A stretch of 62,936 bases of DNA, filler included, from Reclinomonas americana ATCC 50394 (Eukaryota), in NCBI GenBank assembly GCA_048213135.1. It is 5 parts of 3 records of this genome, joined end to end, with 100 filler letters (N's around TTAATTAATTAA, not from the genome) between each part and the next. Parts side by side here need not be neighbours in the genome. Positions count along the whole stretch, not along the records: positions 1 to 17,848 come from PS015239.1; 4 more parts are not named here. One strand, written 5' to 3'. Positions 1 through 48,540 of the stretch are shown one piece after another. Position 1 is the stretch's first letter. Every line of letters begins with the position of its first letter. A program made the translations under genes and the position numbers. The notes under the pieces are model-generated. The model searched no databases and was not told the DNA's origin. It saw nothing but the letters and a program-made list of their open reading frames with translations.

Positions 1-841
1 GCAAGTGCGACGGTACCCATCGAGTGGTCACACCGATGCGGTATTGTCTGTCGCTGTCACCACCGACTCCCAGTACTTTGTGAGTGGGAGCGCGGACACG
101 ACCGTGCGTGTGTGGACCATGGTGAATGGCAAGGCGGTGCGACGAATGGAGGGGCATACTCGCGCGGTGTCATGTGTCGCCGTCACCCCCGACGGTCAGC
201 AAGTGGTGAGCGGGAGTTGGGATGCGACCGTGCGCGTGTGGTCACTGGAGAATGGGAGAGAGGTGCGACGGTTGCAAGGAGACCCAAACGACAAGGTGAA
301 CTCTGTCGCCGTGACTCCGGACGGCCAACGCATTGTGAGTGGCCACCACTGGCGGTCACTCGTGTGGTCGCTGGCGAGTGGCGAGGAGCTGCAGCGGTTG
401 GAGGCATCGTGGAGGGTGCGCTCTGTCGCCGTCACCCCCGATGGCCAGCATATAGTTAGTGGGAGTGATGACTGTACTGTGCGACTTTGGTCGATGGAGA
501 CAGGGAAAGAGGTGCGACGGTTGGAAGGACACACTGGGCGCGTGAAGTGCGTCACAGTCACTCCCAACGGTCAGCACATTCTGAGTGGTAGCGACGATGA
601 TACGGTGCGAGTGTGGTCGTTTACGCCTTTTGACCATGCTCAGCAGGAGCTTGAGTGTGCTCGTTCGGCCTTGGACGTTGTGCAGGAGATTCTGGAGGAG
701 GAGGAGGAGGAGGAGGAGGAGGAGGAGGAGGAGGACTTCAATCGGCGTTGCCTGGTGGAGATCGTGCTGCGTTGCTTCTTGGTCGAAGAGGCGGAGGTTG
801 TTGTCTATCGTTGCTTCACGGACGACAGTTTCATTCTGTGA
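1..841 (+). CDS. WD40 array gene 1 (5' truncated by the window edge): WD40 repeats plus conserved C-terminal module
   Basis: GH..V.SVAVTPDG..IVSGS.D.TVRVW repeats, then ELECARSAL..VQE-polyE-DFNRRCLVEIVLRCFLVEEAEVVVYRCFTDDSFIL*. Confidence 0.9.
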   Translation, partial: QVRRYPSSGHTDAVLSVAVTTDSQYFVSGSADTTVRVWTMVNGKAVRRMEGHTRAVSCVAVTPDGQQVVSGSWDATVRVWSLENGREVRRLQGDPNDKVNSVAVTPDGQRIVSGHHWRSLVWSLASGEELQRLEASWRVRSVAVTPDGQHIVSGSDDCTVRLWSMETGKEVRRLEGHTGRVKCVTVTPNGQHILSGSDDDTVRVWSFTPFDHAQQELECARSALDVVQEILEEEEEEEEEEEEEDFNRRCLVEIVLRCFLVEEAEVVVYRCFTDDSFIL

Positions 842-898
842 CCTGCACGTTCTGCGAGAGGGAAAGGCGTGCAGTGAGCTCTTCTCTCTCTCTCTCTG

Positions 899-931
<33 letters not shown>

Positions 932-1144
932 CTCTCTCTCTCTCTCTCTGTCTCTGTCTCTCTCTCTCTGTTTTGATCTACGTTGCCAGATTGCCTCCCA
1001 CACACCTGCATTCTTAATGTACCCTACGATGAGGCAGCTGTGCAGTCTCGACGAGCGCTGCGAGTGCGTTACACCGAAGTCACAAAATCGTCCTCATCAT
1101 GGAGGACACACTCCCCCACACTCCCTCCTTCCCACGCCAGCAAC

Positions 1145-2230
1145 ATGTCCTCATCTCCTCCGTCGCTCCTGTGCAAGTTCTTGGAAGGATACACCGATAG
1201 CGTGCGTTCCGTCGCCATCACTCCCAATGGCCAACGCATTATCTGTGGTGGTGAGAACGCGTTGAGTGTGTTGTCATTGGCGAGTGGAAAAGTAGTGCAT
1301 TGGCTGCAAGGACACGGAAGAGGGGTGAACTCCGTCGCCGTCACTCCCGATGGTCAGCATGTTATCACTGGCGGTACTGACAAGACAGTGCGCGTGTGGT
1401 CACTGGCAAGTGGCGAGCAAGTGCGACGGTACCCATCGAGTGGTCACACCGATTCGGTATGGTCTGTCGCTGTCACCCCCGACTCCCAGTACTTTGTGAG
1501 TGGGAGCGCGGACGCGACCGTGCGTGTGTGGACCATGGTGAATGGCAAGGCGGTGCGACGAATGGAGGGGCATACTCGCGCGGTGTCATGTGTCGCCGTC
1601 ACCCCCGACGGTCAGCAAGTGGTGAGTGGCAGTCACGACACGACGGTGCGTGTGTGGTCACTGGAGAATGGGAGAGAGGTGCGACGGTTGCACGGAAACC
1701 GAAACGACAAGGTGAACTCTGTCGCCGTGACTCCAGACGGCCGACACATTGTGAGTGGCAGCGACCGGCTGTCACGAGTGTGGTCGCTTGCGAGTGGCGA
1801 GGAGCTGCAACGTTTGGAGGTACCTGTGTTCTGGGTGCGCTCTGTCGTCGTGACTCCCGATGGCCAGCATATTGTCGGCGGCAGTCATGACGGTACTGTG
1901 CGAGTGTGGTTGCTGGAGACTGGGAAAGAGGTGCGGCGGTTGGAAGGACACACTTTGCGTGTGAACTGCGTCGCAGTCACTCCCGACGGTCAGCGCATCG
2001 TGAGTGGCAGTTGGGACGAGACGGTGCGCGTGTGGTCAACGCCTTGTGGCCTTGCTCAGCAGGAGCTTGATTGTGCTCGCTGGGTGCTGGGTGTTGTGCA
2101 AGAGATGTTGGTGGACGAGGAGGACTTCAATCGGCGTTGCCTGGCGGAGATCGTGCTGCGTTGCTTCGTGGTCGAAGAGGCGGAGGTTGTTGTCTATCGG
2201 TGGCTCGCGGACGACAGTTTCATTCTGTGA
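1145..2230 (+). CDS. WD40 array gene 2, intronless, about 7 repeats plus C-terminal module
   Basis: ATG at 1145 (MSSSPPSL) matches the paralog N-termini; uninterrupted ORF. Confidence 0.92.
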   Translation: MSSSPPSLLCKFLEGYTDSVRSVAITPNGQRIICGGENALSVLSLASGKVVHWLQGHGRGVNSVAVTPDGQHVITGGTDKTVRVWSLASGEQVRRYPSSGHTDSVWSVAVTPDSQYFVSGSADATVRVWTMVNGKAVRRMEGHTRAVSCVAVTPDGQQVVSGSHDTTVRVWSLENGREVRRLHGNRNDKVNSVAVTPDGRHIVSGSDRLSRVWSLASGEELQRLEVPVFWVRSVVVTPDGQHIVGGSHDGTVRVWLLETGKEVRRLEGHTLRVNCVAVTPDGQRIVSGSWDETVRVWSTPCGLAQQELDCARWVLGVVQEMLVDEEDFNRRCLAEIVLRCFVVEEAEVVVYRWLADDSFIL

Positions 2231-2494
2231 CCTGCACGTTCTGCGAGAGGGAAAGGCGTGCAGTGAGCTCTTCTCCCTCCTCTCTCTCTCTCTGTCTGTC
2301 TGTCTCTATCTCTCTCTCTGTTTTGATCTACGTTGCCAGATTGCCTCCCACACACCTGCATTCTTAATGTACCCTACGATGAAGCAGCTGTGCAGTCTCG
2401 ACGAGCGCTGCGAGTGCGTTACACCGAAGTCACAAAATCGTCCTCATAACGGAGGACAAACTCCCGCACACTCCCTCCTTCCCACGCCGGCCTC

Positions 2495-3574
2495 ATGTCC
2501 TCCGCTCCTCTCCATTGCAAGTGCTTGCGTGGACACACTGGATTGGTGTCGTGCTTGGCCGTCACACACGATGGCCAGCACATCGTCAGTGGGAGCGGCG
2601 ACATGACCGTTCGCGTGTGGTCACTGGTGAGCGGCAAGCAAGTGCGACGATTGGAAGGGCACATCAATGGGGTGTCGTCAGTCGCTGTCACTCCCGATGA
2701 CCAACACGTTGTCAGTGGGAGCTTGGACAAGACGCTGCGCATGTGGTCAATGTCGAGCGGCGAGGAAGTGCGACGGATGGAGGGATATCTTCCCACGATG
2801 ATGATATCAGTGGCCATCACTCCCAACGGGCAGCGCATTATCAGCGGGAGCCGCGACAACAAACTGTGCATGTGGTCGCTGACAAGTGGCGCAGAAGTGC
2901 GTTGGCTGCAAGGTCACACCGGAAGAGTATTGGCAGTCGCTGTCACCCCCGACGGCCACCGCGTTATCAGCGGCAGTGAAGACACGACAGTGCGAGTGTG
3001 GTCTGTGAAGAGTGGGAAGGAGGTGCGACGGTTGCAGGGGCACACTGACTGGGTGACGTGCGTCGCCGCCACCCCCGATGGTCGACATGTGGTGAGTGGC
3101 AGTCACGACACGACGGTGCGTGTGTGGTCACTGGCAAGTGGAGCACAAGTGCGACAATTGGATGGACACACCGACGTGGTCTACTCGGTTGGCGTCACAC
3201 CCGATGGCCTGCTGATCGTCAGTGGGGGCGAGGACTCCACCGTTCGCATGTGGTCTGCAGCGACTGGGGAAGAGGTGCGACGGTTGGAGGGACACTCCGA
3301 TGTGGTTAATGCGGTCGCCGTCACTCCCGATGGTCAGTGCGTCGTGAGTGGGAGCGGCGACGAAACTGTGCGAGTGTGGTCGACACCTGGTGGCCTAGCT
3401 CGGCTGGAGCTGGAGTGTGCTCGCTGGGTGCTGGGTGTTGTGCAAGAGATGTTGGTGGACGAGGAGGACTTTGATCGGCGTCGCCTGGTGGAGATCGTGC
3501 TGCGTTGCTTCTTGGTCGAGGAGGCGGAGGTTGTTGTCTATCGTTGCTTCGCGGACGACAGTCTCCGATTGTGA
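2495..3574 (+). CDS. WD40 array gene 3, intronless
   Basis: 359-aa ORF, about 7 WD repeats, same C-terminal module. Confidence 0.92.
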   Translation: MSSAPLHCKCLRGHTGLVSCLAVTHDGQHIVSGSGDMTVRVWSLVSGKQVRRLEGHINGVSSVAVTPDDQHVVSGSLDKTLRMWSMSSGEEVRRMEGYLPTMMISVAITPNGQRIISGSRDNKLCMWSLTSGAEVRWLQGHTGRVLAVAVTPDGHRVISGSEDTTVRVWSVKSGKEVRRLQGHTDWVTCVAATPDGRHVVSGSHDTTVRVWSLASGAQVRQLDGHTDVVYSVGVTPDGLLIVSGGEDSTVRMWSAATGEEVRRLEGHSDVVNAVAVTPDGQCVVSGSGDETVRVWSTPGGLARLELECARWVLGVVQEMLVDEEDFDRRRLVEIVLRCFLVEEAEVVVYRCFADDSLRL

Positions 3575-3764
3575 ACTTGTTGGGAGAGAGCTCTCTCTCT
3601 CTCTGTCTGTCTCTTCATTCTCTTGCATGCGATTGCGTGGTTGCTGCAAAGTGTACCCTTCATAGTGCGCTATTATACATGCACGAAGACACGTCGCAAT
3701 TGACTCAAATAGTCCTCGCGATCGTCGTCGAGGACACACTCTTTTCTCCTCATATCACTCTCCC

Positions 3765-4841
3765 ATGTCCTCACCGCCTTCATCCCCCCCATGCATGTGC
3801 TTGCACGGACACATGTGGCACGTACTTTGCGTCGCCCTTACTCCCGATGGCCAGCACATCGTGAGCGGCAGTGCCGACAACAGTGTGCGCGTGTGGTCAC
3901 GCGACGAGGTGCGTCGCATGGAGGGGCACACCTCTCTGGTGATGTCTGTCGCCGTCACACACGATGGCCAGCACGTTGTCAGTGGGAGTGGCGACATGAG
4001 CGTGCGCATATGGTCGCTGGCGAGTGGCAAGCAAGTGCGACAGTTGGAGGGGCACACCGATGGCGTGCTGTCTGTCGCCATCACCCCCGATGACCAGCAC
4101 ATTGTGAGCGGCAGTGGTGACAAGACGCTGCGCGTGTGGTCGTTGAAGAGTGGCAAGCTAGTGCGGCGATTGGAGGGGCACACGTTTGCGGTGTGGTCTG
4201 TGGCCATTACTCCTAGCGGGCGGCACATTGTCAGCGGAGGTCTCGACAACACCGTACGCCTGTGGTCACTGGCACATGGCGCTGAGGTGTGGCGGCTGGA
4301 GGGTCACACGGGAAGAGTGTGGGCGGTTGCTGTCACCCCCGACGGGCGCTACATTGTCAGCGGCAGCGATGACAATACTGTGCGGGTGTGGTCTGTGGCG
4401 AGTGGCGAGGAGGTGCGACGGTTGCAAGGGCACACCGGCATTGTGCTGACTGTCGCCGTCACTCCCGATAGTCGGCACATTGTCAGCGGCAGTCACGACA
4501 AGACCGTGCGCGTGTGGTCACTGGCGAGTGGAGCAGAAGTGCGGCGGCTGGAGGGGCACACCGACGTGGTCTACGCGGTCGCCATCGCCCTCGATGGCCT
4601 GCGCATTGTGAGCGGGAGCCAGGACAAGACCATACGAGTGTGGTCGACTCCATACGGACTCGCCCTGAAAGAGCTCGATTGTGCTCGCTCGGCCTTGGGT
4701 GCGGTGCAGGAGATGCTGGAGGAGGAGGAGGGGGAATCGAATGTCTACTGCTTGGCAGAGATTGTGCTGCGCTGCTTCCTGGTCGAGGAGGCCGAGGTTG
4801 TGGCTCATCGATGCTTCACCGATGACCGACTCCGGTATTGA
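3765..4841 (+). CDS. WD40 array gene 4, intronless
   Basis: 358-aa ORF, about 7 WD repeats, same C-terminal module. Confidence 0.92.
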   Translation: MSSPPSSPPCMCLHGHMWHVLCVALTPDGQHIVSGSADNSVRVWSRDEVRRMEGHTSLVMSVAVTHDGQHVVSGSGDMSVRIWSLASGKQVRQLEGHTDGVLSVAITPDDQHIVSGSGDKTLRVWSLKSGKLVRRLEGHTFAVWSVAITPSGRHIVSGGLDNTVRLWSLAHGAEVWRLEGHTGRVWAVAVTPDGRYIVSGSDDNTVRVWSVASGEEVRRLQGHTGIVLTVAVTPDSRHIVSGSHDKTVRVWSLASGAEVRRLEGHTDVVYAVAIALDGLRIVSGSQDKTIRVWSTPYGLALKELDCARSALGAVQEMLEEEEGESNVYCLAEIVLRCFLVEEAEVVAHRCFTDDRLRY

Positions 4842-5029
4842 CGTCGACTCAGCGAGACAGTTTGTTTGTGTTCTTCTGTCGCACTGTCGCCTGCGTCTCA
4901 AGAGATGGCTGTGTAGTAAACGAGTGACTTCAATAATAGGCGCCACGCGAAACCCGAGGACAATCACTCAGTGTCCCGTCAAAACACTTTCGTCACTCTT
5001 GAGCACGAGCACGCAATCACACGCTCTCC

Positions 5030-6121
5030 ATGTCCGCAGCTCCTCCATCGCTCCCATGCATATGCCTGTGCAGCCACAATGAGGACGTGATGTCGATGTC
5101 TATCGCCATCACCTCCGACAGCCAGCAGATTGTGAGTGGCAGCAACAGCAACGCAGTGCGCGTGTGGTCACTGGCGAGTGGAGAAGTGGTGCAACGGTTG
5201 GAGGGGCACACTCACTACGCATGGACGGTCGCTGTCACACCCGATGGTCAGCACGTTATCAGTGGGAGTGCCGACAACACTATGCGAGTGTGGTCACTGG
5301 CGGCGGGCAGAGAAGTGCGACGGCTGGTGGGTCACACGAGTTCTGTGATGTGTGTTGCTGTTACGCCCGACGGCGAGCACGTTGTCAGTGGGAGCAGTGA
5401 CAAGACTGTGCGCGTGTGGTCCATCAAGAGTGGCAAGGAGGTGCGAAGATTCGATGGGCACACTGGCAAGGTGCAATCGGTCGCTGCCACTCCCGACGGT
5501 CTCCGCGTGGTGAGTGGGAGTTGGGACAAGACCGTGCGCGTGTGGTCGCTGGCGAGTGGAGTCGAAGAGCGGCGACTGGAAGGGGACTCGTCGATGGTGG
5601 TGAGTGTCGCCGTCACTCCCGACAGCCAGTTTGTGGCGAGTGGGGGTATGGACAAAGTTGTGCGCGTGTGGTCGCTGACGAGCGGAGAAGAAGTGCGACA
5701 GCTGGTGGGGCACGCCGACAGCGTTTGGTGTGTTGCTGTCACGCCGGATGGCCAGCACTTTGTCACTGGAAGCGGTGACGCCACTGTGCGCGTGTGGTCG
5801 GTGGCGAGTGGTGCGGAGGTTCGACGGCTGGAGGGACACACTGGGTTGGTCACCTGCGTTGCCGTCTCTCCCGACGGTCACTACATTGTGAGCGGGAGCA
5901 AGGATACCACGATGCGAGTGTGGGCGATGCCGCGTGGTCTCGCCCGCCGAGAGCTCGACTGTGCGCGTTCGGCGATGCGTGCAGTGCAGGAGATGGTGGA
6001 GGAGGGCGACGGTGACGAGGAATCCGGTCGGCGATGCCTACCGGAGGTCGTCCTTCGCTGCTTCTTGGTCGAGGAGGCGGAGGTCGTTCTGTTTCGATGC
6101 TTTGCCGGTGCAAGCCTCTGA
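5030..6121 (+). CDS. WD40 array gene 5, intronless
   Basis: 363-aa ORF; module variant RRCLPEVVLRCFL. Confidence 0.92.
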   Translation: MSAAPPSLPCICLCSHNEDVMSMSIAITSDSQQIVSGSNSNAVRVWSLASGEVVQRLEGHTHYAWTVAVTPDGQHVISGSADNTMRVWSLAAGREVRRLVGHTSSVMCVAVTPDGEHVVSGSSDKTVRVWSIKSGKEVRRFDGHTGKVQSVAATPDGLRVVSGSWDKTVRVWSLASGVEERRLEGDSSMVVSVAVTPDSQFVASGGMDKVVRVWSLTSGEEVRQLVGHADSVWCVAVTPDGQHFVTGSGDATVRVWSVASGAEVRRLEGHTGLVTCVAVSPDGHYIVSGSKDTTMRVWAMPRGLARRELDCARSAMRAVQEMVEEGDGDEESGRRCLPEVVLRCFLVEEAEVVLFRCFAGASL

Positions 6122-6351
6122 CTTTGATGACGTCTTCTCTCTCTCACACTTTCTATCTCTTCCTGGTTTCGATTTGGTTTCTGCCTCTTCACTCTCTTGC
6201 CGTGCTTTGCCAGATTTCATTTCCCGTTCCAGTGTATCGAATTATATTATGAGCACTTCTACCGTCGCCTCCTTCGTGGTGAAGTTCGCAATATCGTCCC
6301 TTTGGGGAGGACACGCCACGCCACGCCTCTTCGCACAATACGCACGCCAGC

Positions 6352-7431
6352 ATGACCTCTGCCCCTCCCTCTCTCCCATGCGTGTGGTTGCGTAGGCACA
6401 CTCACGCTGTGGCTTCTCTTGCCATCACACCCGACAACATGCACGTTGTGTGTGGCCGCAACGACCACACCATTCGAATGTGGTCACTGGCGAACGGGGA
6501 GGAAGCGCGACAGATGGAGGGACACGTACACACCCCCTTTTCGATCGTTGTCACGCCCGACGGTCAGCACGTTATCTGCGGAAGCCAGGAGACGAGCATT
6601 CGCATGTGGTCGCTGGCGACGGGAGAAGAAGTGCGACGACGGTTGGTGGACGATACGTCGACGCAGGTGTGCGTTGCAGTTAGCCCCGACGGCGAGCACG
6701 TTGTCTGCGGGAGCTATAAGACTGTGCGACTGTGGTCACTCCAGAGTGGCAAGGAAGTGCAGCGATTTGAGGGACACACTGCCAGGGTGTCGTCTGTCGC
6801 TGTCACTCCCGACGGTCAGCATGTGGTGAGTGGGAGCTTTGACAAGACCGTGCGTGTGTGGTCGCTGTCGAGCGGAGTCGAGGAGCGACGGCTGGAGGGG
6901 CACGCTTCTGCAGTGGTGTCCGTTGCCGTCACTCCCGATGGTCAGCACGTGGTGACTGGAAGTTGGGACCGCACCGTGCGAGTGTGGTCACTGGCGAATG
7001 GCGAGGAGGTGCGGCGGTTGGAGGGACACGCCGGCAAGGTGTCGTCGGTCGCTGTCACTCCGGATGGCCAGCACTTTGTCACTGGAAGCGGTGACGCCAC
7101 TGTGCGCGTGTGGTCGGTGGCGAGTGGTGCGGAGGTTCGACGGCTGGAGGGACACACTGGGTTGGTCACCTGCGTTGCCGTCTCTCCCGACGGTCACTAC
7201 ATTGTGAGCGGGAGCGAGGATACCACGATGCGAATGTGGGCGACGCCGCGTGGTCTCGCCCACCGAGAGCTCGACTGTGCGCGCTCCGCCTTGCATGCCG
7301 TCCAGGAAATACTGGAAGTTGGCAAGGACGAGTCCGATGGGCGCTGCTTGGTAGAGATCGTCCTTCGCTGCTTCTTGGTCGAGGAGGCGGAGGTCGCCCT
7401 GTTTCGATGCTTCACCCATGCCAGTCTCTGA
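6352..7431 (+). CDS. WD40 array gene 6, intronless
   Basis: 359-aa ORF, WD repeats plus module. Confidence 0.92.
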   Translation: MTSAPPSLPCVWLRRHTHAVASLAITPDNMHVVCGRNDHTIRMWSLANGEEARQMEGHVHTPFSIVVTPDGQHVICGSQETSIRMWSLATGEEVRRRLVDDTSTQVCVAVSPDGEHVVCGSYKTVRLWSLQSGKEVQRFEGHTARVSSVAVTPDGQHVVSGSFDKTVRVWSLSSGVEERRLEGHASAVVSVAVTPDGQHVVTGSWDRTVRVWSLANGEEVRRLEGHAGKVSSVAVTPDGQHFVTGSGDATVRVWSVASGAEVRRLEGHTGLVTCVAVSPDGHYIVSGSEDTTMRMWATPRGLAHRELDCARSALHAVQEILEVGKDESDGRCLVEIVLRCFLVEEAEVALFRCFTHASL

Positions 7432-7662
7432 TTTGTTCTTGTTGATGATTCTCTCTCTCACAAGCTTTCTCGTTTTGATTTGGTTTCTGCCTCTTCTCTC
7501 TCTTGCCGTGCTTTGCCAGATTTCATTTCTCGTTCCTGCCAGTGTACCATACGCATGAAACCTCCACAAGTGATATGTTGCGACGATTGCCAGCCTCTTG
7601 GAAGTTCGGAAAAATAGTCCCCTTCGCAGAGGACACACCACGCCACGCCTCTACACGCCAGC

Positions 7663-8754
7663 ATGACTTGTGCTCTTCCGTCACTCCACGACAAGTATTT
7701 CTACGAATACACCGCCTACGTCATGTGCGTGGCCATTACACCCGATGGCCGGCACATTGTGACTGGCAACGGTAATCACACAATGCGCGTGTGGACGATG
7801 ACGACTGGGCATGGATCGCAACTGCTGGAGGGACACGCTGCGCCGGTTACATCCGTTGCAGTCACTCCCGACAGTCAATACGCCGTGAGCGGGAGTGGCG
7901 ACAAGACCGTGCGAGTGTGGTCACTGGCGAGTTTGGAGGAAGTGCGACGGCTGCAGGGGCACACTACTCATGTTGTGTCTGTGGCCGTCACCCCCGACGG
8001 GCAGCACATCGTCAGCGGCAGTGAGGACAGGACCGTGCGAGTGTGGTCACTGGCGAGTGGAGAAGAAGTGCGACGGCTGGAGGGGCACTCTGACAGGCTG
8101 TGCGCTGTTGCCGTCGCTCCTGATGGTCTGCACATTGCTAGTGCGAGTGATGACGAGACTGTGCGTGTGTGGTCGTTGGCAAGCGGTGGAGAAGTGCAAC
8201 GATTGCAGGGACATGATCGCAGAGTGCTTGCTGTCGTCTTCACTCCCGACAGTCAGCACGTTGTGAGTGGAGGTCAAGACCAGACGGTGCGCGTGTGGTC
8301 GATGAAGAGTGGAGATGAAGTGCGACGGATGGAAGGGCATACGGGGTGGGTGCGTAGTGTCGCCGTCACTCCCGATGGTCGGCACGTAGTGAGCGGCAGT
8401 CACGACAAGACGGTGCGCATGTGGTCTCTCGACAGTGGCGAGGAGGTGCGACGATTGGTGGATCACTTTGACGCAGTTTTCTCTGTCGCCGTCAGTTCCA
8501 ACGGACAGCACATTGTCAGTGGCAGCATAGACAAGACTGTGCGGGTGTGGTCGTCGCAGTGTGGTCTCGCTTGCCAGGAGCTCGACGGCGCACGTTTGGC
8601 GATGCGTGCAGTGCAGGAGATGGAGGAAGAGGAGGAGGAGGAGGAGGAGGCGAATCGGCGCTGCCTGGTGGAAATCGTTCTGCGCTGTTTCTTGGTCGAG
8701 GAGGCCGCGGTTGTTGTCCATCGCTGCTTCGCCGATGACAGACTGCGACTGTGA
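7663..8754 (+). CDS. WD40 array gene 7, intronless
   Basis: 363-aa ORF, WD repeats plus module. Confidence 0.92.
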   Translation: MTCALPSLHDKYFYEYTAYVMCVAITPDGRHIVTGNGNHTMRVWTMTTGHGSQLLEGHAAPVTSVAVTPDSQYAVSGSGDKTVRVWSLASLEEVRRLQGHTTHVVSVAVTPDGQHIVSGSEDRTVRVWSLASGEEVRRLEGHSDRLCAVAVAPDGLHIASASDDETVRVWSLASGGEVQRLQGHDRRVLAVVFTPDSQHVVSGGQDQTVRVWSMKSGDEVRRMEGHTGWVRSVAVTPDGRHVVSGSHDKTVRMWSLDSGEEVRRLVDHFDAVFSVAVSSNGQHIVSGSIDKTVRVWSSQCGLACQELDGARLAMRAVQEMEEEEEEEEEANRRCLVEIVLRCFLVEEAAVVVHRCFADDRLRL

Positions 8755-8942
8755 AGAAGAAGAAGAAGAAGAGAAAAAGTGTAAAGAGCAGGGTTACGTA
8801 TCTTTTCTTCTCTTTCCCCAATATACCGTACGTCTCGACGAGGGGTGGAAGTCGTAAAGAGTGTCCCCGTCGCAAAGGACACGTGTTGTCATTCATCCGT
8901 CTCATCTGCGCGTACACACTCCACTTTTCCATTCCCCGCCTC

Positions 8943-10249
8943 ATGTCCTCAGCTCCTCCATCTCTCCCGCACAAGTGCTTCCGTGGACACACCGGCTTCG
9001 TGCATTCCATCGCCGTGACTCCCGATGGCGAGCACGTCATCAGTGGAGGTGAGGACAAGACCGTGCGTGTGTGGTCTCTGGCGAGTGGGGAAGAAGTGAG
9101 ACGATTGGAGGGACACACAAGCTGGGTGCTCTCTGTCGCTGCCACTCCTGATGGTGTGCACGCAGTGAGTGGGGGTGACACAACTGTGCGTGTGTGGTCA
9201 CTGGCAAGTGGCGAGGAGGCGCAAAGGATGGAGGGTCACACAGAAGCGGTGTACTCAGTCGCCGTCACTCCCGACGGTCAGTACGCGGTGAGTGGGAGTT
9301 CGGATGACACTGTGCGTGTGTGGCTACTCGTGAGTGGCGAGGAAGTGCGGCGGATGGAGGGACATGATAGATCTGTACTGTCTGTCACTGTCACTCCCGA
9401 CAGCCAGCACGTGGTGAGTGGCAGCTATGACAGGACTGTGCGAGTGTGGTCACTGGCGAGTGGGAGGGAGGTGCAGCGATTGAAGGAGGAAGACATTTGG
9501 GGTGTGCACTCAGTTGCCATCACTCCCGATGGCCGAGACATTGTCAGCAGCAGTGGCCATGTATATGGTGGCGACGTCGTGGTGTGCGTGTGGGCGTGGG
9601 CGAGCGGAGAGGCGGTTCGACGATTCGANNNNNNNNNNNNNNNNNNNNNNNNNNNNNNNNNNNNNNNNNNNNNNNNNNNNNNNNNNNNNNNNNNNNNNNN
9701 NNNNNNNNNNNNNNNNNNNNNNNNNNNNNNNNNNNNNNNNNNNNNNNNNNNNNNNNNNNNNNNNNNNNNNNNNNNNNNNNNNNNNNNNNNNNNNNNNNNN
9801 NNNNNNNNNNNNNNNNNNNNNNNNNNNNNNNNNNNNNNNNNNNNNNNNNNNNNNNNNNNNNNNNNNNNNNNNNNNNNNNNNNNNNNNNNNNNNNNNNNNN
9901 NNNNNNNNNNNNNNNNNNNNNNNNNNNNNNNNNNNNNNNNNNNNNNNNNNNNNNNNNNNNNNNNNNNNNNNNNNNNNNNNNNNNNTCAATCGCCGTCACT
10001 TCTGACGGCCAACACATTGTAAGTGGCAGCTACGACAGTACGGTGCGAGTGTGGTCGACCCCCTGCGGTCTCGCTTGCCAGGAGCTCGCCTGTGCGCGCT
10101 CGGCCTTGCATGTCGTGCAGGAGATGTTGGAGGAAGAGGAGGACTTTGATCGGCGGTGCCTGGTGGAGATCGTGTTGCGCTGCTTCTTGGTCGAGGAGGC
10201 CGCGGTTGTTGTCCATCGCTGCTTCACCGATGACAGCCTTCGATTGTGA
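8943..10249 (+). CDS. WD40 array gene 8 (interrupted by N gap 9629-9985)
   Basis: ATG 8943 MSSAPPSLPHKCFRGH; last WD repeat and module follow the gap. Confidence 0.8.
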
Positions 10250-10435
10250 ACAAGAAGAAGAGAAAAAGTGTAAAGAGCAGGGTTACGTATCTTCTCTTCT
10301 CTTTCCCCAATGTACCGTACGTCGTAATGGTCTCGACGAGGGGTGGAAGTCGTAAAGAGTGTCCCCGTCGCAAAGGACATTCACACCGTCCGTCTCCTCT
10401 GCGCGCACACACTCCACTCTTCCATTCCCCGCCTC

Positions 10436-11530
10436 ATGTCCTCAGTCCCTCCATCTCTCCCGCACAAGTGCTTCCGTGGACACATCGGCTTCGTGCGTTC
10501 CGTCGCCGTGACTCCCGATGGCGAGCACGTCATCAGTGGAAGTGACGATAAGACCGTGCGAGTGTGGTCTCTGGCGAGTGGGAAAGAAGTGAGACGACTG
10601 GAGGGACACACAAGCTGGGTGCTCTCTGTCGCTGCCACTCCTGATGGTGTGCACGCAGTGAGTGGGGGTGACACAACTGTGCGTGTGTGGTCACTGGCAA
10701 GTGGCGAGGAAGTGCGGAGGATGGAGGGACACACCGGTTTGGTGAACTCTGTCGCCGTTACTCCCGACGGTAAGCACGTGGTGAGTGGGAGTGCTGACAG
10801 AACTGTGCGTGTGTGGCTGCTCGCGAGTGGCGAGGAGGTGCTGCGGATGGAGGGACATGATAGAGCTGTACTCTGTGTTGCTGTCACTCCCGACAGTCAG
10901 CACGTGGTGAGTGGCAGCTATGACAGGACTGTGCGAGTGTGGTCACTGACGAGTGGAAGGGAGGTGCAACCATCGAAGGGACACACTCGGGCTGTGCAGT
11001 CTGTTGCCGTCACGCCCGATGGTCTGCACATTGTCACCAGCAGTTACGATTTGTTCAGTGACGACGGTGTGGTGCGGGTGTGGGCATGGGCGAGCGGAGA
11101 GGACGTACGACTCTTAGAGGGCCACTCTCCGAAGGTGTGTTCTGTCGCCGTCACGCCCGATGGCCGGCATGTTGTCACGGGGGGTGCGGACGACCTCGTT
11201 CGAGTGTGGTCACTGGCGACTGGCGATGAAGTGCGACGGATGGAGGGACACACTGACTGGGTGCGGTCGATCGCTGTCTCTCCTAACGGTGAGCACATTG
11301 TGAGTGGCAGTGACGACCAAACGGTGCGGGTGTGGTCGACCCCCTGCGGTCTCGCTCGGCTGGAGCTCGCCTGTGCGCGCTCGGCCTTGCATGACGTGCA
11401 GGAAATGCAGGAGGAGGAGGAGGACTTTGATCGGCGGTGCCTGGTGGAGATCGTGTTGCGCTGCTTCTTGGTCGAGGAGGCCGAGGTCATCGTTCATCGC
11501 TGCTTCGCCGATGACAGCCTTCGATTGTGA
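10436..11530 (+). CDS. WD40 array gene 9, intronless
   Basis: ATG 10436 MSSVPPSLPHKCFRGH; close paralog of gene 8. Confidence 0.92.
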   Translation: MSSVPPSLPHKCFRGHIGFVRSVAVTPDGEHVISGSDDKTVRVWSLASGKEVRRLEGHTSWVLSVAATPDGVHAVSGGDTTVRVWSLASGEEVRRMEGHTGLVNSVAVTPDGKHVVSGSADRTVRVWLLASGEEVLRMEGHDRAVLCVAVTPDSQHVVSGSYDRTVRVWSLTSGREVQPSKGHTRAVQSVAVTPDGLHIVTSSYDLFSDDGVVRVWAWASGEDVRLLEGHSPKVCSVAVTPDGRHVVTGGADDLVRVWSLATGDEVRRMEGHTDWVRSIAVSPNGEHIVSGSDDQTVRVWSTPCGLARLELACARSALHDVQEMQEEEEDFDRRCLVEIVLRCFLVEEAEVIVHRCFADDSLRL

Positions 11531-19700: not shown

Positions 19701-21052
19701 CCGATGTTCTCGTCGGTCACCAACGCCTGCTGTGTGCCCAAGCAACATCCCGACCAAACCATGTTGCATGACTTTACGGTGCGGGGTGTGCGTGCGTGCA
19801 TGTGCGTATTGAGTGCAACGGTGACTGACTCACACCGCGTGATAGAATATCGGTCGCTTCATGTGTCGCATGCTCGTCGACCGTCGACTGATGCCAGGCA
19901 ATGTGTTTTCCGCTGGTATGTGAGAATGGAGAGACTAGCGAGAAGAGAATAATGCCTGCTCACCGCCGACCCGCAGTGGTTTTCCGACACATATTGACGC
20001 CTCCCGATCGTCCCACTCGTGTGTTCTTTGCCGATCTCGAGGCGTACGACCCTGCGCTAGCCAGTTGCGTTGACCATCGGCGAACTCTCCGTTCCCAAAG
20101 CACGTCATAAAGCTCTTTCTGTCGACCAGGAACGTTTGTGGCCACGCTGACAAGCGACGTCACCGATTGGTATCTCGACTGGGGCGACCTCGGTTAGTGC
20201 TCACATTGTTGTTCCCTTTCCTGCTGCTCTTTGGCATCATCCTTGGTATTGTTTGTTACGGATGTAGGTGATATCAACAAGCTGGTCACCAACGCCAACA
20301 AGGCGGAGTTTGTGGAGAAACGCACTCGTCACTTGCTGCTGGACGGTTGCATCCACGGGCTTAATGCCATGCGCGCCGGTTTCTGGGCTATGGCTAGCGA
20401 CTTTTCGTTGCGTTTTATTGTTCAGAAAAGCGTGCTCTGGAGACATGGGCTCCTCACGGTGTTGGTGGGATGCAGGATGCAAGATGACTTGAAGATTCTG
20501 TCCGCCCGCGATCTGCAGCTGCTCATGTGCGGCCGGCGTGTGGTGGGGGCAGCCGAGTTCCTCGCCGAGTGTCGTTTCCAGAGCTTCTCAGCCGCGTCGG
20601 AGGCCGTCCTGCGACGCCTGCTTCACCACTGGGGCGAGCATGCGCCGGAGAAGCTGACGCAGTTGCTCATGTTCATCACTGGCTTGCCGGCGTTGCCGTC
20701 GGGAGGCGAGCTAACTGTGCGTGGATCGGGCTACACGGGCATCACGTTCAACGGATGCCTAAACAATCCAGAATCCTTCCCAGTGTCCCATGTGAGTGTG
20801 CGCTTGGTGCAAAGAGGGAATGGAGGAGGGAGTGACCTCACGAGTGATGCAATGCAGGTCTGCTTCTTCCGGCTGGACATGTACCCGTCGGAGGACTATG
20901 ATCACATGTCGCGTGTGTTGCGTCTCATATCTACTCTACTCTCCTGCTCGCCTCGTCAATCGCCGCATTCATTCATTCGTCACGTTACGCGCAGCTTGGA
21001 CCGCACGCTGGAGTACATGGCAGGCGACGGCGGTGGTTTCTTCATCGGTTGA
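13782..21052 (+). CDS. Multi-exon coiled-coil + pseudokinase + HECT E3 ubiquitin ligase (5' partial, gapped)
   Basis: Spliced HECT motifs FQGEEGIDG|GGLTTALY, DLEAYDPAL, VTNANKAEFV, LNAMRAGF, LLMFITG, catalytic FPVSH|VCFFRLDM, C-terminus GFFIG*; kinase C-lobe PPE..DMWCWGVMLY..PQQRLDAAECAMKPYF at about 18790-19080. Confidence 0.8.
16298..16679 (-). CDS. Two helical/coiled-coil exons on a gap-flanked contig, probably a mis-oriented part of the kinase-HECT gene
   Basis: Minus-strand exons VKTRLAEALVIL...ERMAG and VNRKNQLLQEGL...LEKLR joined by a GT-AG intron; N gaps on both sides. Confidence 0.5.
18033..18537 (-). CDS. Kinase N-lobe and catalytic-loop exons on two gap-flanked, individually flipped contigs
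   Basis: CVLK..EAFTREV (18122-18033), then LLSQLRHHAI..GGTLRTWL..QLLEGLEFLHLNGVVHGWLTMDTV..LKIVDFD; contig order fits the + strand gene. Confidence 0.7.
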
Positions 21053-21157: not shown

Positions 21158-24100
21158 TCATTCCTCAGTAGCCTTGAACCGTGCACTGAGTGCTGGCACA
21201 CGGCCACGGCGAAGAGCGGGCGCAGTTGCGGTGCCACGTCGCGCTCCGTGGCCACTCGTCTCCAACACGCCAGCGTCGAACTCGTCCGTGGCCTCGCGGC
21301 GCATCTTGGCTCTCTTCTTCAGGTGCTGCGCCTTGGCGTCCTCGATCTGGTCACGCGCCTCCTCCAGCTTCTGCTTGCGAACAAAGGACGGCACATGGAG
21401 CGAGGAGGCTGCGGTCGCCGCCGCCTCAGCCACCTGCAACAGCGACTGCCTCTTCTGCTCGCCCTGCCTCTGCGCGTCGTCCTTGGGGCCGCCCGACGAC
21501 CACGACGATGACTTTTTCGTTGGTACCGGTGCATAACTCTCGTAGCTGAGTGATGCCGGGCGCGCAGGCGTACTTGAAACGGTTGTCGACACTGGTGTCG
21601 CCACAAACGACCGTGACAGCGGCTTGGCTACCACTGCCGTCGCGGCGGCGGCAGCCGGCGCCGGCGTCGGTGTCGGCGTCGTTGCCGTAACAGATGTGGA
21701 TGTTGACGAAGATGACGACCACGGTTGATACTGCTGCTGCTGCAGCTGGCGAGCCTGCACCTCCATGATCGTAGTGCCCTGCACGCGTGCCTCGCGCTCC
21801 TCAAACTTGCGGATTTTGCGCTCGGTGACCTTTAGCGCCACAGGATTGGTGTTGGCACGCTCGCGTCTCCTTCTCGCGCGCTGTGGTGGGAACGGTGAGC
21901 GGCACAGAAGAGGAACACGTCTCACACAACGCCCGCCACTCACCATAATATCTGTGGGGCTCTCTTTCAGCGCAAACGAGCGTGCCACGTGGCCGAGGTG
22001 CAGGTTCTTCACGTGGAAAATGTCGCGCGTGGCCGACACGTGCGCAGCGTAGGCGCGCACGTACGACTGGAAGGTGAAGCGGGCCAACTCGTGAAGCTGT
22101 GGGAAAGAAGGCAAGGTAAACGAGGTGAATGCTTGTCTCTGCTCTTGCCTGGTGCGCACACTCACCTCATTGTCAAGGAGAACGTGGTCCTGCAACATTT
22201 GCTGCATCCATCGCACTGCGCATCGGTCACGGAAGGTCAGCGAAATACATGGGAAGCGAGAGAGAGAGAGAGAGCATGAATAGTCGCCGACAAACCAGCC
22301 TCACGCGGATCCTTGGTTCGCTCGTACCTCAACAGCGTCTTGAACAATACATCGGTGGGAATGAGATTCATGTGCACCTGCGTACCACGTGTGAGTCACC
22401 AATGCCAACACTTCAGTGCGCGCACTCTTTTTCTCCGCAACATTCATCTTCGACAGCAGTTCGACATATTTCTCCTCGGTGGGCATCAGGAAGAGCAGTG
22501 AGTCGCCGATTTGACCCAGACGTGCAGTACGACCGACCTGAGCGCGGAATAGGGGGGAGAGAGAGACGGTGAGTGAGTGAATGAGGAGGGAGGGAGGGAG
22601 GGAGGGCGAGAGAGAGAGGAGGGGGGGAGGAGAAGAAGAGTGCGAGGGTAAGAGAAAAAGAGGGCGGGAGGGAGAAGTAGAAGGAGAGAAGGGAGAAGGA
22701 AAGTGGGAGGGTGGGAGGGAGAGAGGCAGAAGGAGAGCGAGAGATGAGAACGAGGGAAGGTGGGTGAGGGGAGGAGAACGGGAGAAGGAAAGTGGGACGG
22801 TGGGAGAAGGAGAGTGGGAGGGTGGGAGGGAGACAGGCAGATGTAGAGCGAGAGAATAGGAGCGAGTGAGGACAAGGAGAAAGAAGGTGAGCGAGCAGAG
22901 AATGAAGGAAGGTGAGTGAAAGGACGAGAGAAGAAGAGAGAGAGAGAGACAGAGAGTGCGCAGTTGATTTCAAAACCAAACACGCGTCTGAGCGAGAGAC
23001 GAAACTCGATGCAAATAATCCTTTGGGTCGCCTGGCGTATCGTACTGAATGATCCACTGCACGGATGGCAAGTCGAGACCGCGCGAGGCTGCAGTCCAGC
23101 GCGCATCAATATCGTAGACGATGCCCGAAAAACCGCCCTCCGGCACACTCACCAACATCGGTGCACAGCAGAATGCCATTGGGTGAGCTGGCAAACTGGA
23201 AGTACACTTGAGTGCGCTCCTTTTGCGTCATGCTGCCGTGCAATTTGAACATGGGCAAGTCGAAAAACATGTTGCCGCCGGAGTAATCGGGGATCTTGCG
23301 TTCCTCCGGCTCGTCCTCATGTCGGGAGACCACGCCAGCTGTGACTCAAACACGGAATGAGACAGAGGAGCACGTAAAACAGCAGCGCGACATCAACACA
23401 CACCTCCCGCCTGCTGCGACATATCAATGGTGCGGAAGGTGCCGAATAATCGAAAGTGGAACTCGACAGCATCGCAGCTGGAGAAGAAGACAATCATCTT
23501 TGATGCAGATCTGCACGTCGTGATGAGTACACAAGGCAAAAACACGATAACCGTCCACAGCTCCAGTTGCGCAACTTCTTTGCCGTCTGCCACTTGAGGA
23601 AGGTCAACAGTGCCACCAGCCGATTGCCGGCCGGTACAATCAAGCAGTTCTGGCGCAGTGTTGATGGCAGTCGGAATCCCTCTTCCTGTGCAGCGTATAG
23701 CGAGATTGGTGACTGGTAAGTGACGACATTCTTCAACAACAGTAATAATGACACAGACACACACCTCGTCTTCGACGCCAAAGCTGTCAAGCTTGGTCTC
23801 GTCTGTGCACGTCAATGAGGGAAAAGGCATAGCGGCAGAAAATCGACACAGTCACGCACCCCAATCGCCAGTCTTGACGGGGTCACGCAGCGTGGCGCTG
23901 GCGAGACGCAACACTCGCTTGTCGAGAGTGGCCGAGCAGAGAATCGACTGCGGAAAGAGCTGTGCGAACGTGGAGGGTCAGCGGAAGCGGAGAGGGAGTG
24001 CAATGCAAGCAGAAACGTGCTCGTACCTTGGTCTCCTTCAGAATGTCCGCAATGCGCGTAATGTCCTTTTCGAAACCCAAGTCCATCAGTCTGTCGGCAA

Positions 24101-24725
24101 GAGGAGGTCAGAAGACAAACAAAAGAGCAATACAACTCTTCTCTGCCGCCACACACACCGATCGGCCTCGTCGTACACCACAAAGCGCAGATGATTGCAA
24201 TTCCACGAGCTGGTGGTCTGCAAGTGATCCAACAGGCGACCGGGAGTGCCCACCAGAATGTTGATGCCCTTGCGCAGGCGCGCCTTTTCAGATTTTTTCT
24301 TTTCGCCGCCCATCACGGATCCGGGAACGATCCACACGTAGGGGCGCACGACCTTGAAGATGACTTCGTAGATTTGGATACAGAGCTCGCGGGTGGGTGC
24401 CAGGATGATGGCTGCGCGCAAAGGGGGAAGGGTGAGGGAAAGGGGATGAAGAAGGGAAAGAAAGGTTGAAAGGGAAACGCAGATGGACAATGCCTGAAAA
24501 CGTTGTTGCACGTGTGAGGATTCAGCGGCGAAAGAGGGGTCGATGAGAGACAGAGTACGACGACATCGGTACATGGAGAGGAGGAGAACAGTAGGAAGGG
24601 AAAGGCACATGGACGATGACTGAGAGAACAGTGGACAGCGAACACAGAGCAAGAAGAAGAAAGGAGAAAAGATGTAGCTGCACGTGAGCGGAATCGTCAG
24701 CAAAAGAGGGAACGTTGTGAGACGG

Positions 24726-24765
<40 letters not shown>

Positions 24766-26427
24766 GACTCAACCAAAAGTGCCGTCACTGCGCTCAATGT
24801 GTGGATCAATCTGTTGCAGCATTTGTACAATGGGAATCAAGTAGGCCAGCGTCTTGCCACTGCCCGTCTCGGACTTGATGAGGCTGGTGAGTAGGAAGCA
24901 TGAGTGAGACGATTTTCATCGAGTGAGAAGGGACCCAACTGACTACGCACACATCGTGTCCTTGCAGAATACTGGGAATCGCGTCGGCTTGGCATCGCGT
25001 CAAATGCTCGACGCCAAAGTGCTCTGCTCCCGTACGGCACAATAAGTAAAGCGTCTCTCCCTCTCTTTCGGTGGCGAATGTTCAGCGCACCCTTCAAACT
25101 AGGGGCCATCTTTGCGTCGAGTCCAAGGCCGTCCATCGACACTTCGGTGGCGAAGAAACCAGCGCGACCTGGCAACGCGCTGCCGCTGCTGCTGCCACTC
25201 CCACTCGCACCTCCGTTCACACCTTCAGCTCCTCCGTCCACTTCCATGCCGTCGGTGGCTGCACGCAGAGCGGTGAGATGCAAGGCAAGCACAGGAAAAC
25301 TGAGAGAAAATTGCACAAACCCGATGTAGCCGCGCGGAAGCTGTCGCTGACGCTCGGTGCATCGACCGGTCGCCGCACCACCTCGTCGAGTGTCATGTCG
25401 GTGCCGTCGGTCTGCGGAGAATGATCCAAGAGTCAGCAAGGAACGGTGGATAGAATGTCCATCAACAGAGAGAGAGAGAGAGGCAGGAAGGGAGACGGCA
25501 AGAGGGGAAAGGGCGGGAAGGGAGAGCGCAGGAAGGGAGAGCACAGAAAGGGAGAGGGTGGGAGAGAGAGAGGGCGGGAAGGGAGAAGCGGCAGGTAGGG
25601 AAGGCAACTGACGAATCAAAAGCAAGCACGCGAGAGAAGTGGTGACGAGAAGAGAGCAATGAGAAGAAGCAGGTTGGCTGGGAAGATACGACAAATAAGA
25701 TCCGAGGTTTAACAGGGAAAACACACGCATTTTGTATTGCTCACATTAACAAGCAGTCCGCGCTGTTCCCTTTCTCTCGCATCCACCTTTCTGTTATGCT
25801 CCTCTTCGTCTCCCACAGTCCACTCAACTGTTCGCAAACATTCCTCTGTTCTCCACTCCTTTCATCTGCTCTGCCATCACCTCACTCTCTCCCTCTTCCT
25901 CTCCCTCTCCCTCTCTCTCTCGCGCGCGCGTGTACATTTTCTCCTCTGTCGCCTTCTCTCTTTCATCTCTTCTGCCTTCTCCTCCCTCTGTCACTCCCCT
26001 CCACTCTATCCCCCTCTCATTACACATCACAAACCTTTTGCTTCTTCTTCGGGGGCTTCTTCACCACCGCCGGCATCAGTCCACGCTCCTCTTGCGTCAC
26101 TCCCCCGTCATCAACGTCGTCATCGTCACCGTCAACATCACGTGAAGCCTTTTTCTTGCTCGTACCACTCTTGCTCTTCACCCCGTCACTCCCAGCGCCA
26201 TCAGCATCCTCCAGTGATCGCTTCTTCCCTGCCGTCTTATCACTCAGCTGTTGCTGCTTCTTCTTGGTTGTCGCAGTAGTCGTCGCCGCAGTCGCCGCTG
26301 TCGGTGCAGGCTTCTCCACTGCAGTCTCCGTCTTTACCGGCTTCGCCACCTTGGCCACCTTGGCGGGCTTCGGGGGTGGCGGAGGCGGAATGTAAAAGTT
26401 GAGCATCATGCCGTCGTCGTCGTCCAT
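21158..26427 (-). CDS. DBP7: DEAD-box RNA helicase DBP7/DDX31 family (60S biogenesis), multi-exon
   Basis: [101 protein letters not shown]. Confidence 0.93.
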
Positions 26428-31121: not shown

Positions 31122-41526
<10,405 letters not shown>

Positions 41527-46162: not shown

Positions 46163-46625
46163 GCCTCTCTCTCCGTCTCGCACTCCCTCGTCTCTCTCTC
46201 TCTTCCCTCTTCCCTCTCCTCTCTTTCTCTCTGTCTCTCTGCCTCTCTCATTTCCCTCTTCCTCACCTAAAATCCACCTTGATATGCTGCGCATTGAAGA
46301 AGAACAGCGTCGCCGGCAACAACGTGATATCGAAGTACCGCACATACACCTCCACACAGTCCTCTTCCCCATCACCGTCACCATCATCATCCTCACTAAC
46401 GTCCACCAAGTACACATCAGCCATCTCCGCCAACGCAGGCGCGCACTTGCTCAGAGTCTCGTCGAGAGAGAGTTGCTGCTGGAAGGCGTGCTCGGAGTGT
46501 GCGCGTGCGGCGTCCAAGGCGAGACCAAAACGGAGAATGACTATGCGGTCTTCGGTGTCGCGAATGACGTGGTCGATGGAGGATTTCGTGCGGAGAGTGG
46601 GGAGTAGAAGCTGTGCGGATGACAT
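45400..46625 (-). CDS. TXNL4B: Thioredoxin-like protein 4B (Dim2), 2 exons
   Basis: [93 protein letters not shown]; the PDHTK and YxDI C-terminus are Dim2-type. Confidence 0.9.
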
Positions 46626-46699
46626 GTGTGAAAGGGATAGGAAGTGATTGGAGAGAGGACAGGCTCGTGTCCTTTGCATTGGAAGCTTTGCTATGCAAC

Positions 46700-47971: not shown

Positions 47972-48368
47972 CTTCTTCTTCTTCTTCTCTCATTCCTCAC
48001 CAACTCTTGCTTTCCTTCACCCCCGCTTTCTCACTGTTTACCTTCCCCCCTCCCCTCTCCCCTCACCTTTCCCTTTTGCAGTACCTCCTTCCCTTCGCCC
48101 TCAACCAACTCGGCTCCGCTCTCTTCCTGGTGGCCCTCGGCACCTCCGACATCACCATCGCCGTGCCCGTCAGCAACGCCACCGCCATGGTGGTATCGTA
48201 CTTGTTCTCGTGCGCACTCGGCGACTGTCGCATGTACTCTGGTGCGACCTGCTCCCTTAGCTTGCAGAGTTCTCTTTGTCGCGCTCACTCACTGCCCGCA
48301 CGAATGTAGACTCGATGATTGGGGTGGCGTGTATCGCCGCCGGTGTGGCCATGCTGCAGTCTGTGTAA
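47601..48368 (+). CDS. TMEM234: TMEM234 family membrane protein, 4 exons
   Basis: VGLLWGITDPLIKR|G..LFTNWR|YLLPFALNQLGSALF..DITIAVPVSNA..IGVACIAAGVAM. Confidence 0.88.
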
Positions 48369-48540
48369 TTCTGTGTGCAGCTGTGCGACAGGCAAGTGGG
48401 AGCGCGTGCTGGCCAGCTCATTATCTTGTTCGGGGAGAGCAGGCCTTTGTGACAAGGCTGATAGACGGACTTGTCTTCGTTGTGGAGCGAGTGAACCATG
48501 ACCATTCGCGACATTGATCGCCGGCTTGGTGGCTCACAGC

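Follow-up and report, generated by a model that had tools for sequence, protein, structure and literature searches.

The stretch of DNA analysed here (the window; 62,936 nt in five joined parts, from assembly GCA_048213135.1 of Reclinomonas americana ATCC 50394) begins with a tandem array of genes for small WD40-repeat proteins. The array occupies positions 2-11530, where nine open reading frames (ORFs) follow one another head to tail on the plus strand. Seven of them are complete (358-364 aa, with no stop or frameshift), g1 is cut by the window start and g8 contains an N gap. Every gene is a single uninterrupted ORF of about 360 aa, and the successive spacers from g1 to g9 measure 303, 264, 190, 188, 230, 231, 188 and 186 bp. 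An earlier note on this DNA had described at least nine same-strand intronless genes of this size, about 190-300 bp apart, and this description is borne out. Since the 5' end of g1 is cut by the window edge, the array may extend upstream, and "at least nine" is the correct count. No further copies were found downstream of position 11530: none of the 21 tblastn high-scoring segment pairs obtained with g3 fell in the other 51 kb of the window. The genes are listed below; a blade is one WD40 repeat of the predicted propeller, the scaffold is the conserved part of the propeller sequence, the tail is the C-terminal segment that follows the propeller, and dS is the synonymous divergence.

g1, 2-841, plus strand: 5' part cut by the window start; blades 3-7; tail 647-838
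g2, 1145-2230, plus strand: complete, 361 aa, 7 blades; tail 2036-2227; recent duplicate of g1 (scaffold dS 0.21)
g3, 2495-3574, plus strand: complete, 359 aa, 7 blades; tail 3380-3571; copy used for modelling
g4, 3765-4841, plus strand: complete, 358 aa, 7 blades; tail 4647-4838; one-blade register shift relative to g3
g5, 5030-6121, plus strand: complete, 363 aa, 7 blades; tail 5927-6118
g6, 6352-7431, plus strand: complete, 359 aa, 7 blades; tail 7237-7428; mosaic relative of g5
g7, 7663-8754, plus strand: complete, 363 aa, 7 blades; tail 8560-8751
g8, 8943-10249, plus strand: assembly gap (N run) inside, at 9629-9985; blades 1-5 before the gap; end of blade 7 and tail (10055-10246) after it
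g9, 10436-11530, plus strand: complete, 364 aa, 7 blades; blade 5 with a 5-residue insertion; tail 11336-11527; recent duplicate of g8 (scaffold dS 0.17)

The assembly scaffold that carries the array is rich in N gaps, one of them inside g8, and g1 is truncated by the window start, so that the array might be seen as an assembly artefact, in which one gene was collapsed or expanded, or as a run of pseudogenes. We hold this to be extremely improbable: dS values of 0.2-1.1 between copies, together with their distinct spacers, cannot come from mis-assembling one gene, the frames are open with seven blades in all seven complete copies, and the ratio of nonsynonymous to synonymous rates (omega) of the propeller scaffold is about 0.2. 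The two halves of g8 on either side of the gap are in different frames, as expected when the gap length is arbitrary.

Two short elements recur in the array spacers and nowhere else in the window, which indicates that the duplicated unit includes its own upstream region. The first, GTCCY-N5-9-RAGGACA, has complementary ends (GTCC/GGAC) and matches six times in the window, always upstream of an array gene, against 0.21 matches expected (0 of 100 shuffles reach six). The second, CARTRTACCNTACG, matches five times in the window with at most one mismatch, always in an array spacer, against 0.05 expected.

1090-1108, 2440-2458, 6296-6313, 7617-7635, 8863-8881 and 10361-10379, plus strand: GTCCY-N5-9-RAGGACA, 28-62 nt before the ATG
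1015-1028, 2365-2378, 7540-7553, 8819-8832 and 10308-10321, plus strand: CARTRTACCNTACG, in array spacers

A pyrimidine tract precedes every array gene. Microsatellites of the types (CT)n and (GT)n are also found in the spacers at 842-1144 and 2231-2494, which are otherwise 94% identical but differ in microsatellite length.

Propeller architecture, variable columns and tail

A hidden Markov model (HMM) of the repeat built from the copies recognised exactly seven blades in each of the seven complete proteins, five blades in g1, and five scored blades, a fragment and one further blade in g8. Pfam WD40 (PF00400) matched seven stretches in each of the six proteins scanned, with E-values of 1.8e-69 to 2.2e-81. 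Only about 12 residues precede blade 1. No NACHT or other N-terminal domain was found, the best 25 of the 50-57 Pfam families matched per protein being WD40-type only, and no NACHT, HET, TIR or other signalling domain appeared in Pfam scans of the array proteins and tails. The statement of the earlier note that these proteins lack a NACHT domain thus holds.

The structure of g3 was modelled with AlphaFold2, using the paralogues as alignment. The model (predicted local distance difference test, pLDDT, 90.3; predicted template modelling score 0.85) comprises 28 strands arranged as seven four-stranded blades, followed by two helices (residues 298-318 and 323-353). Its first strand, residues 7-12, is N-terminal to strand a of blade 1 and, by WD40 topology, would provide the closing (fourth) strand of blade 7. 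On this model, each array protein is predicted to be one closed seven-bladed propeller. Structural comparison, alongside which a Foldseek ranking was run, placed the model closest to 2ymu_A (Z 49.6, root-mean-square deviation (rmsd) 1.2 A over 289 residues), 7big_A (Z 49.5) and 5yzv_B (Z 49.0), and none of the structural alignments reaches past about residue 306. The best neighbours of the array propeller are consensus-type, "highly repetitive" bacterial propellers (PDB 2ymu; 5yzv, from Thermomonospora curvata) and the designed WRAP-T, with 37-40% identity, rmsd values of 0.9-1.2 A and Z of 47-50, and they share with it both the scaffold consensus and the variable columns. Consensus-type bacterial WD40 propellers are usually the sensor domains that end large multidomain proteins.

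We aligned 60 blades to a 42-column unit that begins after VRVW. Five columns are hypervariable, namely 16, 17 and 19, which follow GH-T, and 35 and 37, immediately before and after the conserved Asp; their entropy is 3.1-3.7 bits, whereas most other columns are below 1.3 bits. Between them, V18 is conserved at 90% and D36 at 95% of the 60 blades. This agrees with the variable positions after GH and before D that the earlier note had seen in a near-invariant scaffold, and the pentapeptides that it had quoted (TDAVL, TRAVS, TGRVK and others) are present. In blade 1 of the g3 model, DSSP places columns 16-17 before the strand of residues 18-23, column 19 as the second residue of this strand, and columns 35 and 37 between the strands of residues 29-34 and 38-43. 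The model thus predicts that columns 16, 17 and 19 belong to the d-a loop and the beginning of strand a, and columns 35 and 37 to the b-c turn. Together, these loops make up the binding face.

With five such positions per blade, each protein would expose 35 of them, and the five-residue combinations are distinct in all 53 complete blades. Tryptophan makes up 6.2% of the residues at the hypervariable columns, compared to 2.7% expected from base composition (2.3-fold, P=0.001). Between old paralogues, identity at the hypervariable columns is at background level: 8.3% for blades of the same index, compared to 9.5% for blades of different index. Columns 17, 35, 19, 12, 15 and 37 were also the most variable over 920 repeats from 120 unrelated WD40 proteins, most of them bacterial, which are the matches listed in a whole-protein search. 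As unrelated WD40 proteins vary at the same columns, the location of the variability is generic to WD40 repeats and is no mark of immune receptors.

Directly after the propeller, each array protein ends in a conserved tail of about 64 aa, in which 20 of the 64 positions are invariant across the nine copies, in line with the fixed C-terminal module of the earlier note. Its consensus reads ELxCARxALxxVQE, then an acidic run, then RRCLVEIVLRCFLVEEAEVV. The acidic linker differs in length between copies: g1 carries a perfect (GGA)14 at 694-735, giving a run of 15 Glu, and the other copies have 2-9 acidic residues. Folded alone, the tail is predicted to form an antiparallel two-helix hairpin (pLDDT 85.9; helices at residues 3-27 and 31-63). 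Its structural matches peak at Z 8.9, with 14 chains at Z of at least 8, all of them generic antiparallel hairpins, and helical models below Z of about 13 may share a common arrangement only. Prediction of a two-copy tail dimer gave a score of 0.01 with the fold of the partner itself uncertain, and speaks neither for nor against a dimer.

No Pfam family was common to more than one of the nine tails (hmmscan, E<=10), and F-box, SOCS-box and LisH were not matched, although remote homology below the reach of HMMER is possible. A profile search of PDB sequences gave no match (one hit at E=1), and the ESM Atlas held no usable neighbour. Two candidate identities were rejected. The motif RCLxEIV had prompted us to consider a SOCS-box or VHL-like BC box, but the residue four positions before the Cys varies (F, S, P and others) and Pfam gives no match. 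A zinc site formed by the four Cys of the tail was likewise abandoned, as just one of them, in LRCF, is invariant in the 12 tails compared.

R. americana is a jakobid (Discoba), and relatives of its array proteins proved few once the tail was taken into account. A whole-protein search returned 2178 WD40 proteins, none more than 56% identical; query coverage was 59-90%, about 80% for most, which fits the propeller alone, and the tail was covered in none of the 120 matches listed. When a tail profile was searched against all 1.84 billion representative proteins, only three other carriers were found, of 116-394 aa, all of them short proteins made of propeller and tail, and no NTPase or other extra domain was found in them.

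P0121, 116 aa: tail E 2e-22; source label Reclinomonas americana, EC795383.1.p2; 64% identical to g9 over the last blade and the tail
P0122, 394 aa: from a run assembly; divergent propeller plus tail; 27% identical to g9 end to end
P0123, 381 aa: from a run assembly; divergent propeller plus tail; 24% identical to g3

From the style of its accession, we take EC795383.1 to be an expressed sequence tag, in which case R. americana transcribes a gene of the family. The propellers of P0122 and P0123 are much more divergent and lack the idealised scaffold. An iterated profile of 12 tail sequences revealed no carriers among longer proteins beyond these two. None of 170 candidates from a word-indexed protein collection carried the tail, and none of 79 pattern matches in JGI metagenome contigs was confirmed. 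In the literature on jakobid WD40 proteins and on lineage-specific WD40 expansions in protists, no description of a propeller-plus-tail family was found among the matches listed. Other WD40 proteins of interest in jakobids are Gcp1-3, which the passages of PMC8134430 drawn on here describe as Pex7-related and as co-occurring with the mitochondrial type II secretion system in jakobids, heteroloboseans and malawimonads.

Selection and exchange among blades

Old gene pairs of the array have scaffold dS values of 0.6-1.1 and a scaffold omega of about 0.2; their hypervariable sites are saturated, and all complete ORFs are intact. Three pairs are younger, with scaffold dS of 0.21 (g1/g2), 0.17 (g8/g9) and 0.46 (g5/g6). 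In these, amino-acid differences affect 45 of 79 hypervariable codons but only 96 of 577 scaffold codons (odds ratio 6.6, P=1e-13), and the proportion of nonsynonymous differences (pN) at hypervariable codons, 0.363, exceeds the pooled proportion of synonymous differences (pS), 0.240 (Fisher P=0.002). As a guard against circularity, the variable columns were chosen again from g3, g4 and g7 only, and the same five columns were obtained. The contrast is also seen in the seven most recently homogenised blade pairs, with an identity of 92% or more, where 9 of 32 hypervariable codons differ compared to 14 of 229 scaffold codons (P=5e-4); hypervariable pN is here 0.145 against a pS of 0.068, a ratio of 2.1 with a borderline P=0.054. 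Spacer divergence K in the two youngest pairs (0.063 and 0.084) agrees with this pS of 0.068 and is below the hypervariable pN of 0.145.

The three young pairs were then fitted by maximum likelihood (ML) with a codon model using F3x4 codon frequencies, a transition/transversion ratio kappa, one synonymous distance per pair common to all site classes, and single-nucleotide steps only. In the two-class model, omega is 2.34 at the five columns and 0.32 elsewhere, with a likelihood ratio statistic of 18.6 against omega=1 (P=1.6e-5). In the four-class model, omega is 2.17 at the hypervariable columns, 0.56 at the moderately variable ones (3, 6, 12, 15, 28 and 29), 0.26 in the rest of the propeller and 0.50 in the tail. 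The earlier note had suggested diversification at the binding face and had proposed a codon-level analysis mapped onto a predicted structure; with the columns placed on the g3 model, this analysis reveals an excess of nonsynonymous change at the top-face columns. As judged from these sequences, the propeller scaffold and the tail are under purifying selection, while the codon comparisons show that the five predicted face positions per blade change faster than synonymous sites after duplication and are randomised between old copies.

The blades of the array are old repeats. Within genes, their DNA identity averages 66% and reaches at most 80%, so that none of the 172 pairs attains 85%; between genes, none of the 1367 pairs of blades at different indices reaches 85% nucleotide identity, and the mean is again 66%. 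Tandem Repeats Finder reports a period of 126 on the array, with 67-77% matches. Because the blades are only about 66% identical, the idealised scaffold is attributed to purifying selection on old repeats and not to concerted evolution. Traces of exchange are nevertheless found. Blades 1-6 of g3 pair with blades 2-7 of g4 at a best-partner nucleotide identity of 0.76-0.80, and hypervariable identity between the two genes is 12/30 at this one-blade offset compared to 2/35 in register. These alignments identify a one-blade register shift between g3 and g4, with the total held at seven. Between g5 and g6, blade 7 is 98% identical in DNA and the other blades are 68-83% identical. The g3/g4 shift and the mosaic divergence inside the young pairs suggest that an occasional, slow exchange between blades adds variety.

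We consider it probable that the array encodes a lineage-restricted family of stand-alone propeller adaptors, expanded in tandem, whose binding faces diversify and whose coupling tail stays constant. Several points weigh against this reading. High entropy by itself adds nothing to it, because the same columns top the variability in unrelated WD40 proteins. In g1 and g2, blade 5 (1658-1783 in g2) is one residue short and has neither the GH dipeptide nor the conserved Asp; this blade is decaying or specialised, and the loss of both landmarks means that some copies may be decaying. The omega above 1 comes from three paralogue pairs that are all mosaics, with blade identities within a pair of 79-98%, and in such mosaics, conversion by donor genes not seen here, or changes of several nucleotides at once, could pass for an excess of replacements; no donor for their divergent blades was found in the window. 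Besides the borderline comparison of nearly identical blades, a binomial test on the hypervariable codons' own few synonymous sites gave P=0.08. As for the tail, its pLDDT in the full-length g3 model is only 62-77, and its coupling role is one that we infer.

Some of these points favour an alternative in which the paralogues are redundant or slowly subfunctionalising housekeeping adaptors that diverged in the ordinary way under relaxed constraint on the top face. The omega above 1 would then be an artefact, produced by mosaics that arose through gene conversion, by mutations of several nucleotides at once or by a depressed rate of synonymous change. Such a view fits the mosaic state of the recent pairs, the two simple tests that remain borderline (P=0.08 and P=0.054), the degenerate blade 5 of g1 and g2, the variability of the same columns in the 120 unrelated proteins, and a G+C content at third codon positions of 0.65-0.73 in the array genes, which hints at some codon bias. 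It is harder to reconcile with the rejection of omega=1 by the ML test and with the confinement of omega above 1 to the five columns, the moderately variable ones giving 0.56. Hypervariable pN also exceeds intergenic divergence, the enrichment in Trp at the five columns is unlike neutral drift, and the complete ORFs are all intact at dS of about 1. We thus regard relaxed constraint as unlikely and retain the reading as a family of propeller adaptors under diversifying selection.

Possible roles of the family

On the preferred reading, the family grew by tandem duplication of a unit of about 1.3 kb comprising a gene and its own upstream elements. The propeller face would act as the specificity module, each paralogue recognising a different partner, and the constant tail may link all paralogues to a single partner or assembly that they share. 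A comparable logic is found in substrate-receptor families: F-box-WD40, WD40-SOCS-box and DCAF proteins combine a variable propeller with a small constant docking module, which is C-terminal in the case of the SOCS box. The array family would share this proposed logic by analogy, and not the sequence families of these receptors.

A second comparison is with the HNWD/NWD proteins, NOD-like receptors of the fungus Podospora anserina (HET-E, HET-D, HET-R), for which we refer to selected passages of one paper. There, positively selected codons 7, 9, 25 and 27 flank the constrained codons 8 and 26 and map to the d-a loop and the b-c turn, an interaction surface (Paoletti et al. 2007, PMC1805685). 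The same passages describe proteins with HET and NACHT domains, variable repeat numbers, and repeats kept up to 100% identical by concerted evolution (PMC1805685). Within the limits of that description, the array resembles HNWD as a multigene WD40 family in which dN exceeds dS at two pairs of positions flanking a conserved residue. Columns 17/19 and 35/37, on either side of V18 and D36, have the identical 18-residue spacing of HNWD codons 7/9 and 25/27. Some exchange of repeat units is common to both. Unlike HNWD, the array proteins have no NACHT domain, since only about 12 residues precede blade 1 and the spacers measure 186-303 bp; their blade number is fixed at seven in the seven complete paralogues of this one assembly; their blades, 66% identical on average, show no concerted evolution; and their C-terminal hairpin lies outside the organisation of HET, NACHT and WD repeats given for HNWD in those passages. 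The earlier note had taken the pattern of variable positions as a mark of HNWD receptors. What stands is the two column pairs with HNWD spacing; the diagnostic value does not, because the same columns vary in the 120 unrelated WD40 proteins.

By extension, the paralogues could be germline-encoded receptors for bacterial, viral or conspecific molecules, whose tail would signal to a common executor, making the family a NACHT-less counterpart of HNWD. The excess of replacements at exactly the positions reported as selected in HNWD, the unique combination in each of the 53 blades, the tandem array with its signs of blade exchange and the constant module on every copy would all be expected of such receptors. 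Against this, the Pfam scans give no signalling domain, be it NACHT, HET, TIR or another, the complete copies all have the same number of blades, and concerted evolution is not seen (0 of 172 within-gene pairs at 85%). Moreover, most copies are old (dS of about 1), with no rapid turnover, and the variable positions are generic to WD40 repeats. None of the tests is specific to an immune role, and the term "immune-like" is borrowed by analogy only. Of the immune-like repertoire proposed in the earlier note, the diversification of the face, the absence of NACHT and the fixed tail persist, whereas the array lacks three features that define HNWD, namely NACHT, repeats that are nearly identical and a repeat number that varies. 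An immune function of this kind appears to us quite doubtful, and propeller adaptors remain the preferred reading.

In its widest form, the idea would be that a free-living jakobid-type protist holds a germline recognition repertoire of NTPase-less seven-bladed propellers, their faces driven apart by selection and exchange and wired to a common executor through an undescribed hairpin. We judge this improbable to much the same degree. Were it true, the repertoire would represent a route to the recognition of non-self, prey or symbionts that is independent of NOD-like receptors (NLRs). Fast-evolving WD40 faces are so far known mainly from fungal NLRs, in which they form the sensor end, while here omega exceeds 1 at the same positions in minimal proteins, made of a propeller and a 64-residue tail alone. 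If the tail serves for docking, this would be a compact, naturally occurring family in which one constant handle is combined with many binding faces, from a deep lineage of eukaryotes that has received little study. The array could then serve as a simple system to ask what drives the diversification of propeller faces outside immunity. Should the selection signal fail on fuller data, an ordinary lineage-specific gene expansion would remain.

Neighbouring genes and repeats

The window has a GC content of about 0.58 outside gaps and contains 24 N runs; its genes are rich in low-complexity sequence and appear to be spliced. The neighbouring genes look ordinary by Pfam: a HECT fragment, an SPB4-like DEAD-box helicase, an FN3-like repeat protein and a DIM1-like protein. 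A telomerase-like gene considered at 58-60.6 kb had no Pfam support and was withdrawn, and Rfam gave no match over the whole window.

20198-21049, plus strand: ORF piece, some 9 kb downstream of the array, that matches the HECT ubiquitin-transferase domain at E 1.1e-13
21161-24784, minus strand: SPB4-like DEAD-box helicase in separate ORF pieces, DEAD at 24089-24784 and CTE_SPB4 at 21161-22300
31439-37101, minus strand: long run of tandem protein repeats of about 200 residues, with the motif ATLNGSANPFG...VYYYRV, interrupted by gaps and short non-coding pieces
46266-47354, minus strand: ORF whose end matches DIM1 (E 3.7e-17)
48260-49084: tandem repeat of about 87 bp, in which several frames of both strands remain open over long stretches; unit of the encoded peptide ...ESTKECRRRPRARRSAGGGREHEGVQEEA...; no Pfam match

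The earlier note had opposed the intronless array to spliced genes in most of the window. The helicase and HECT Pfam matches do sit in separate ORF pieces, which lends this claim support of an indirect kind only, at the level of sequence. Low-complexity sequence separates the pieces of the helicase, so that they are consistent with exons interrupted by introns. The repeats at 31439-37101 match weakly the FN3-like N-terminal domains of PhoD and of purple acid phosphatase. The ORF at 46266-47354 contains an acidic insertion and is thus a divergent DIM1-like gene.

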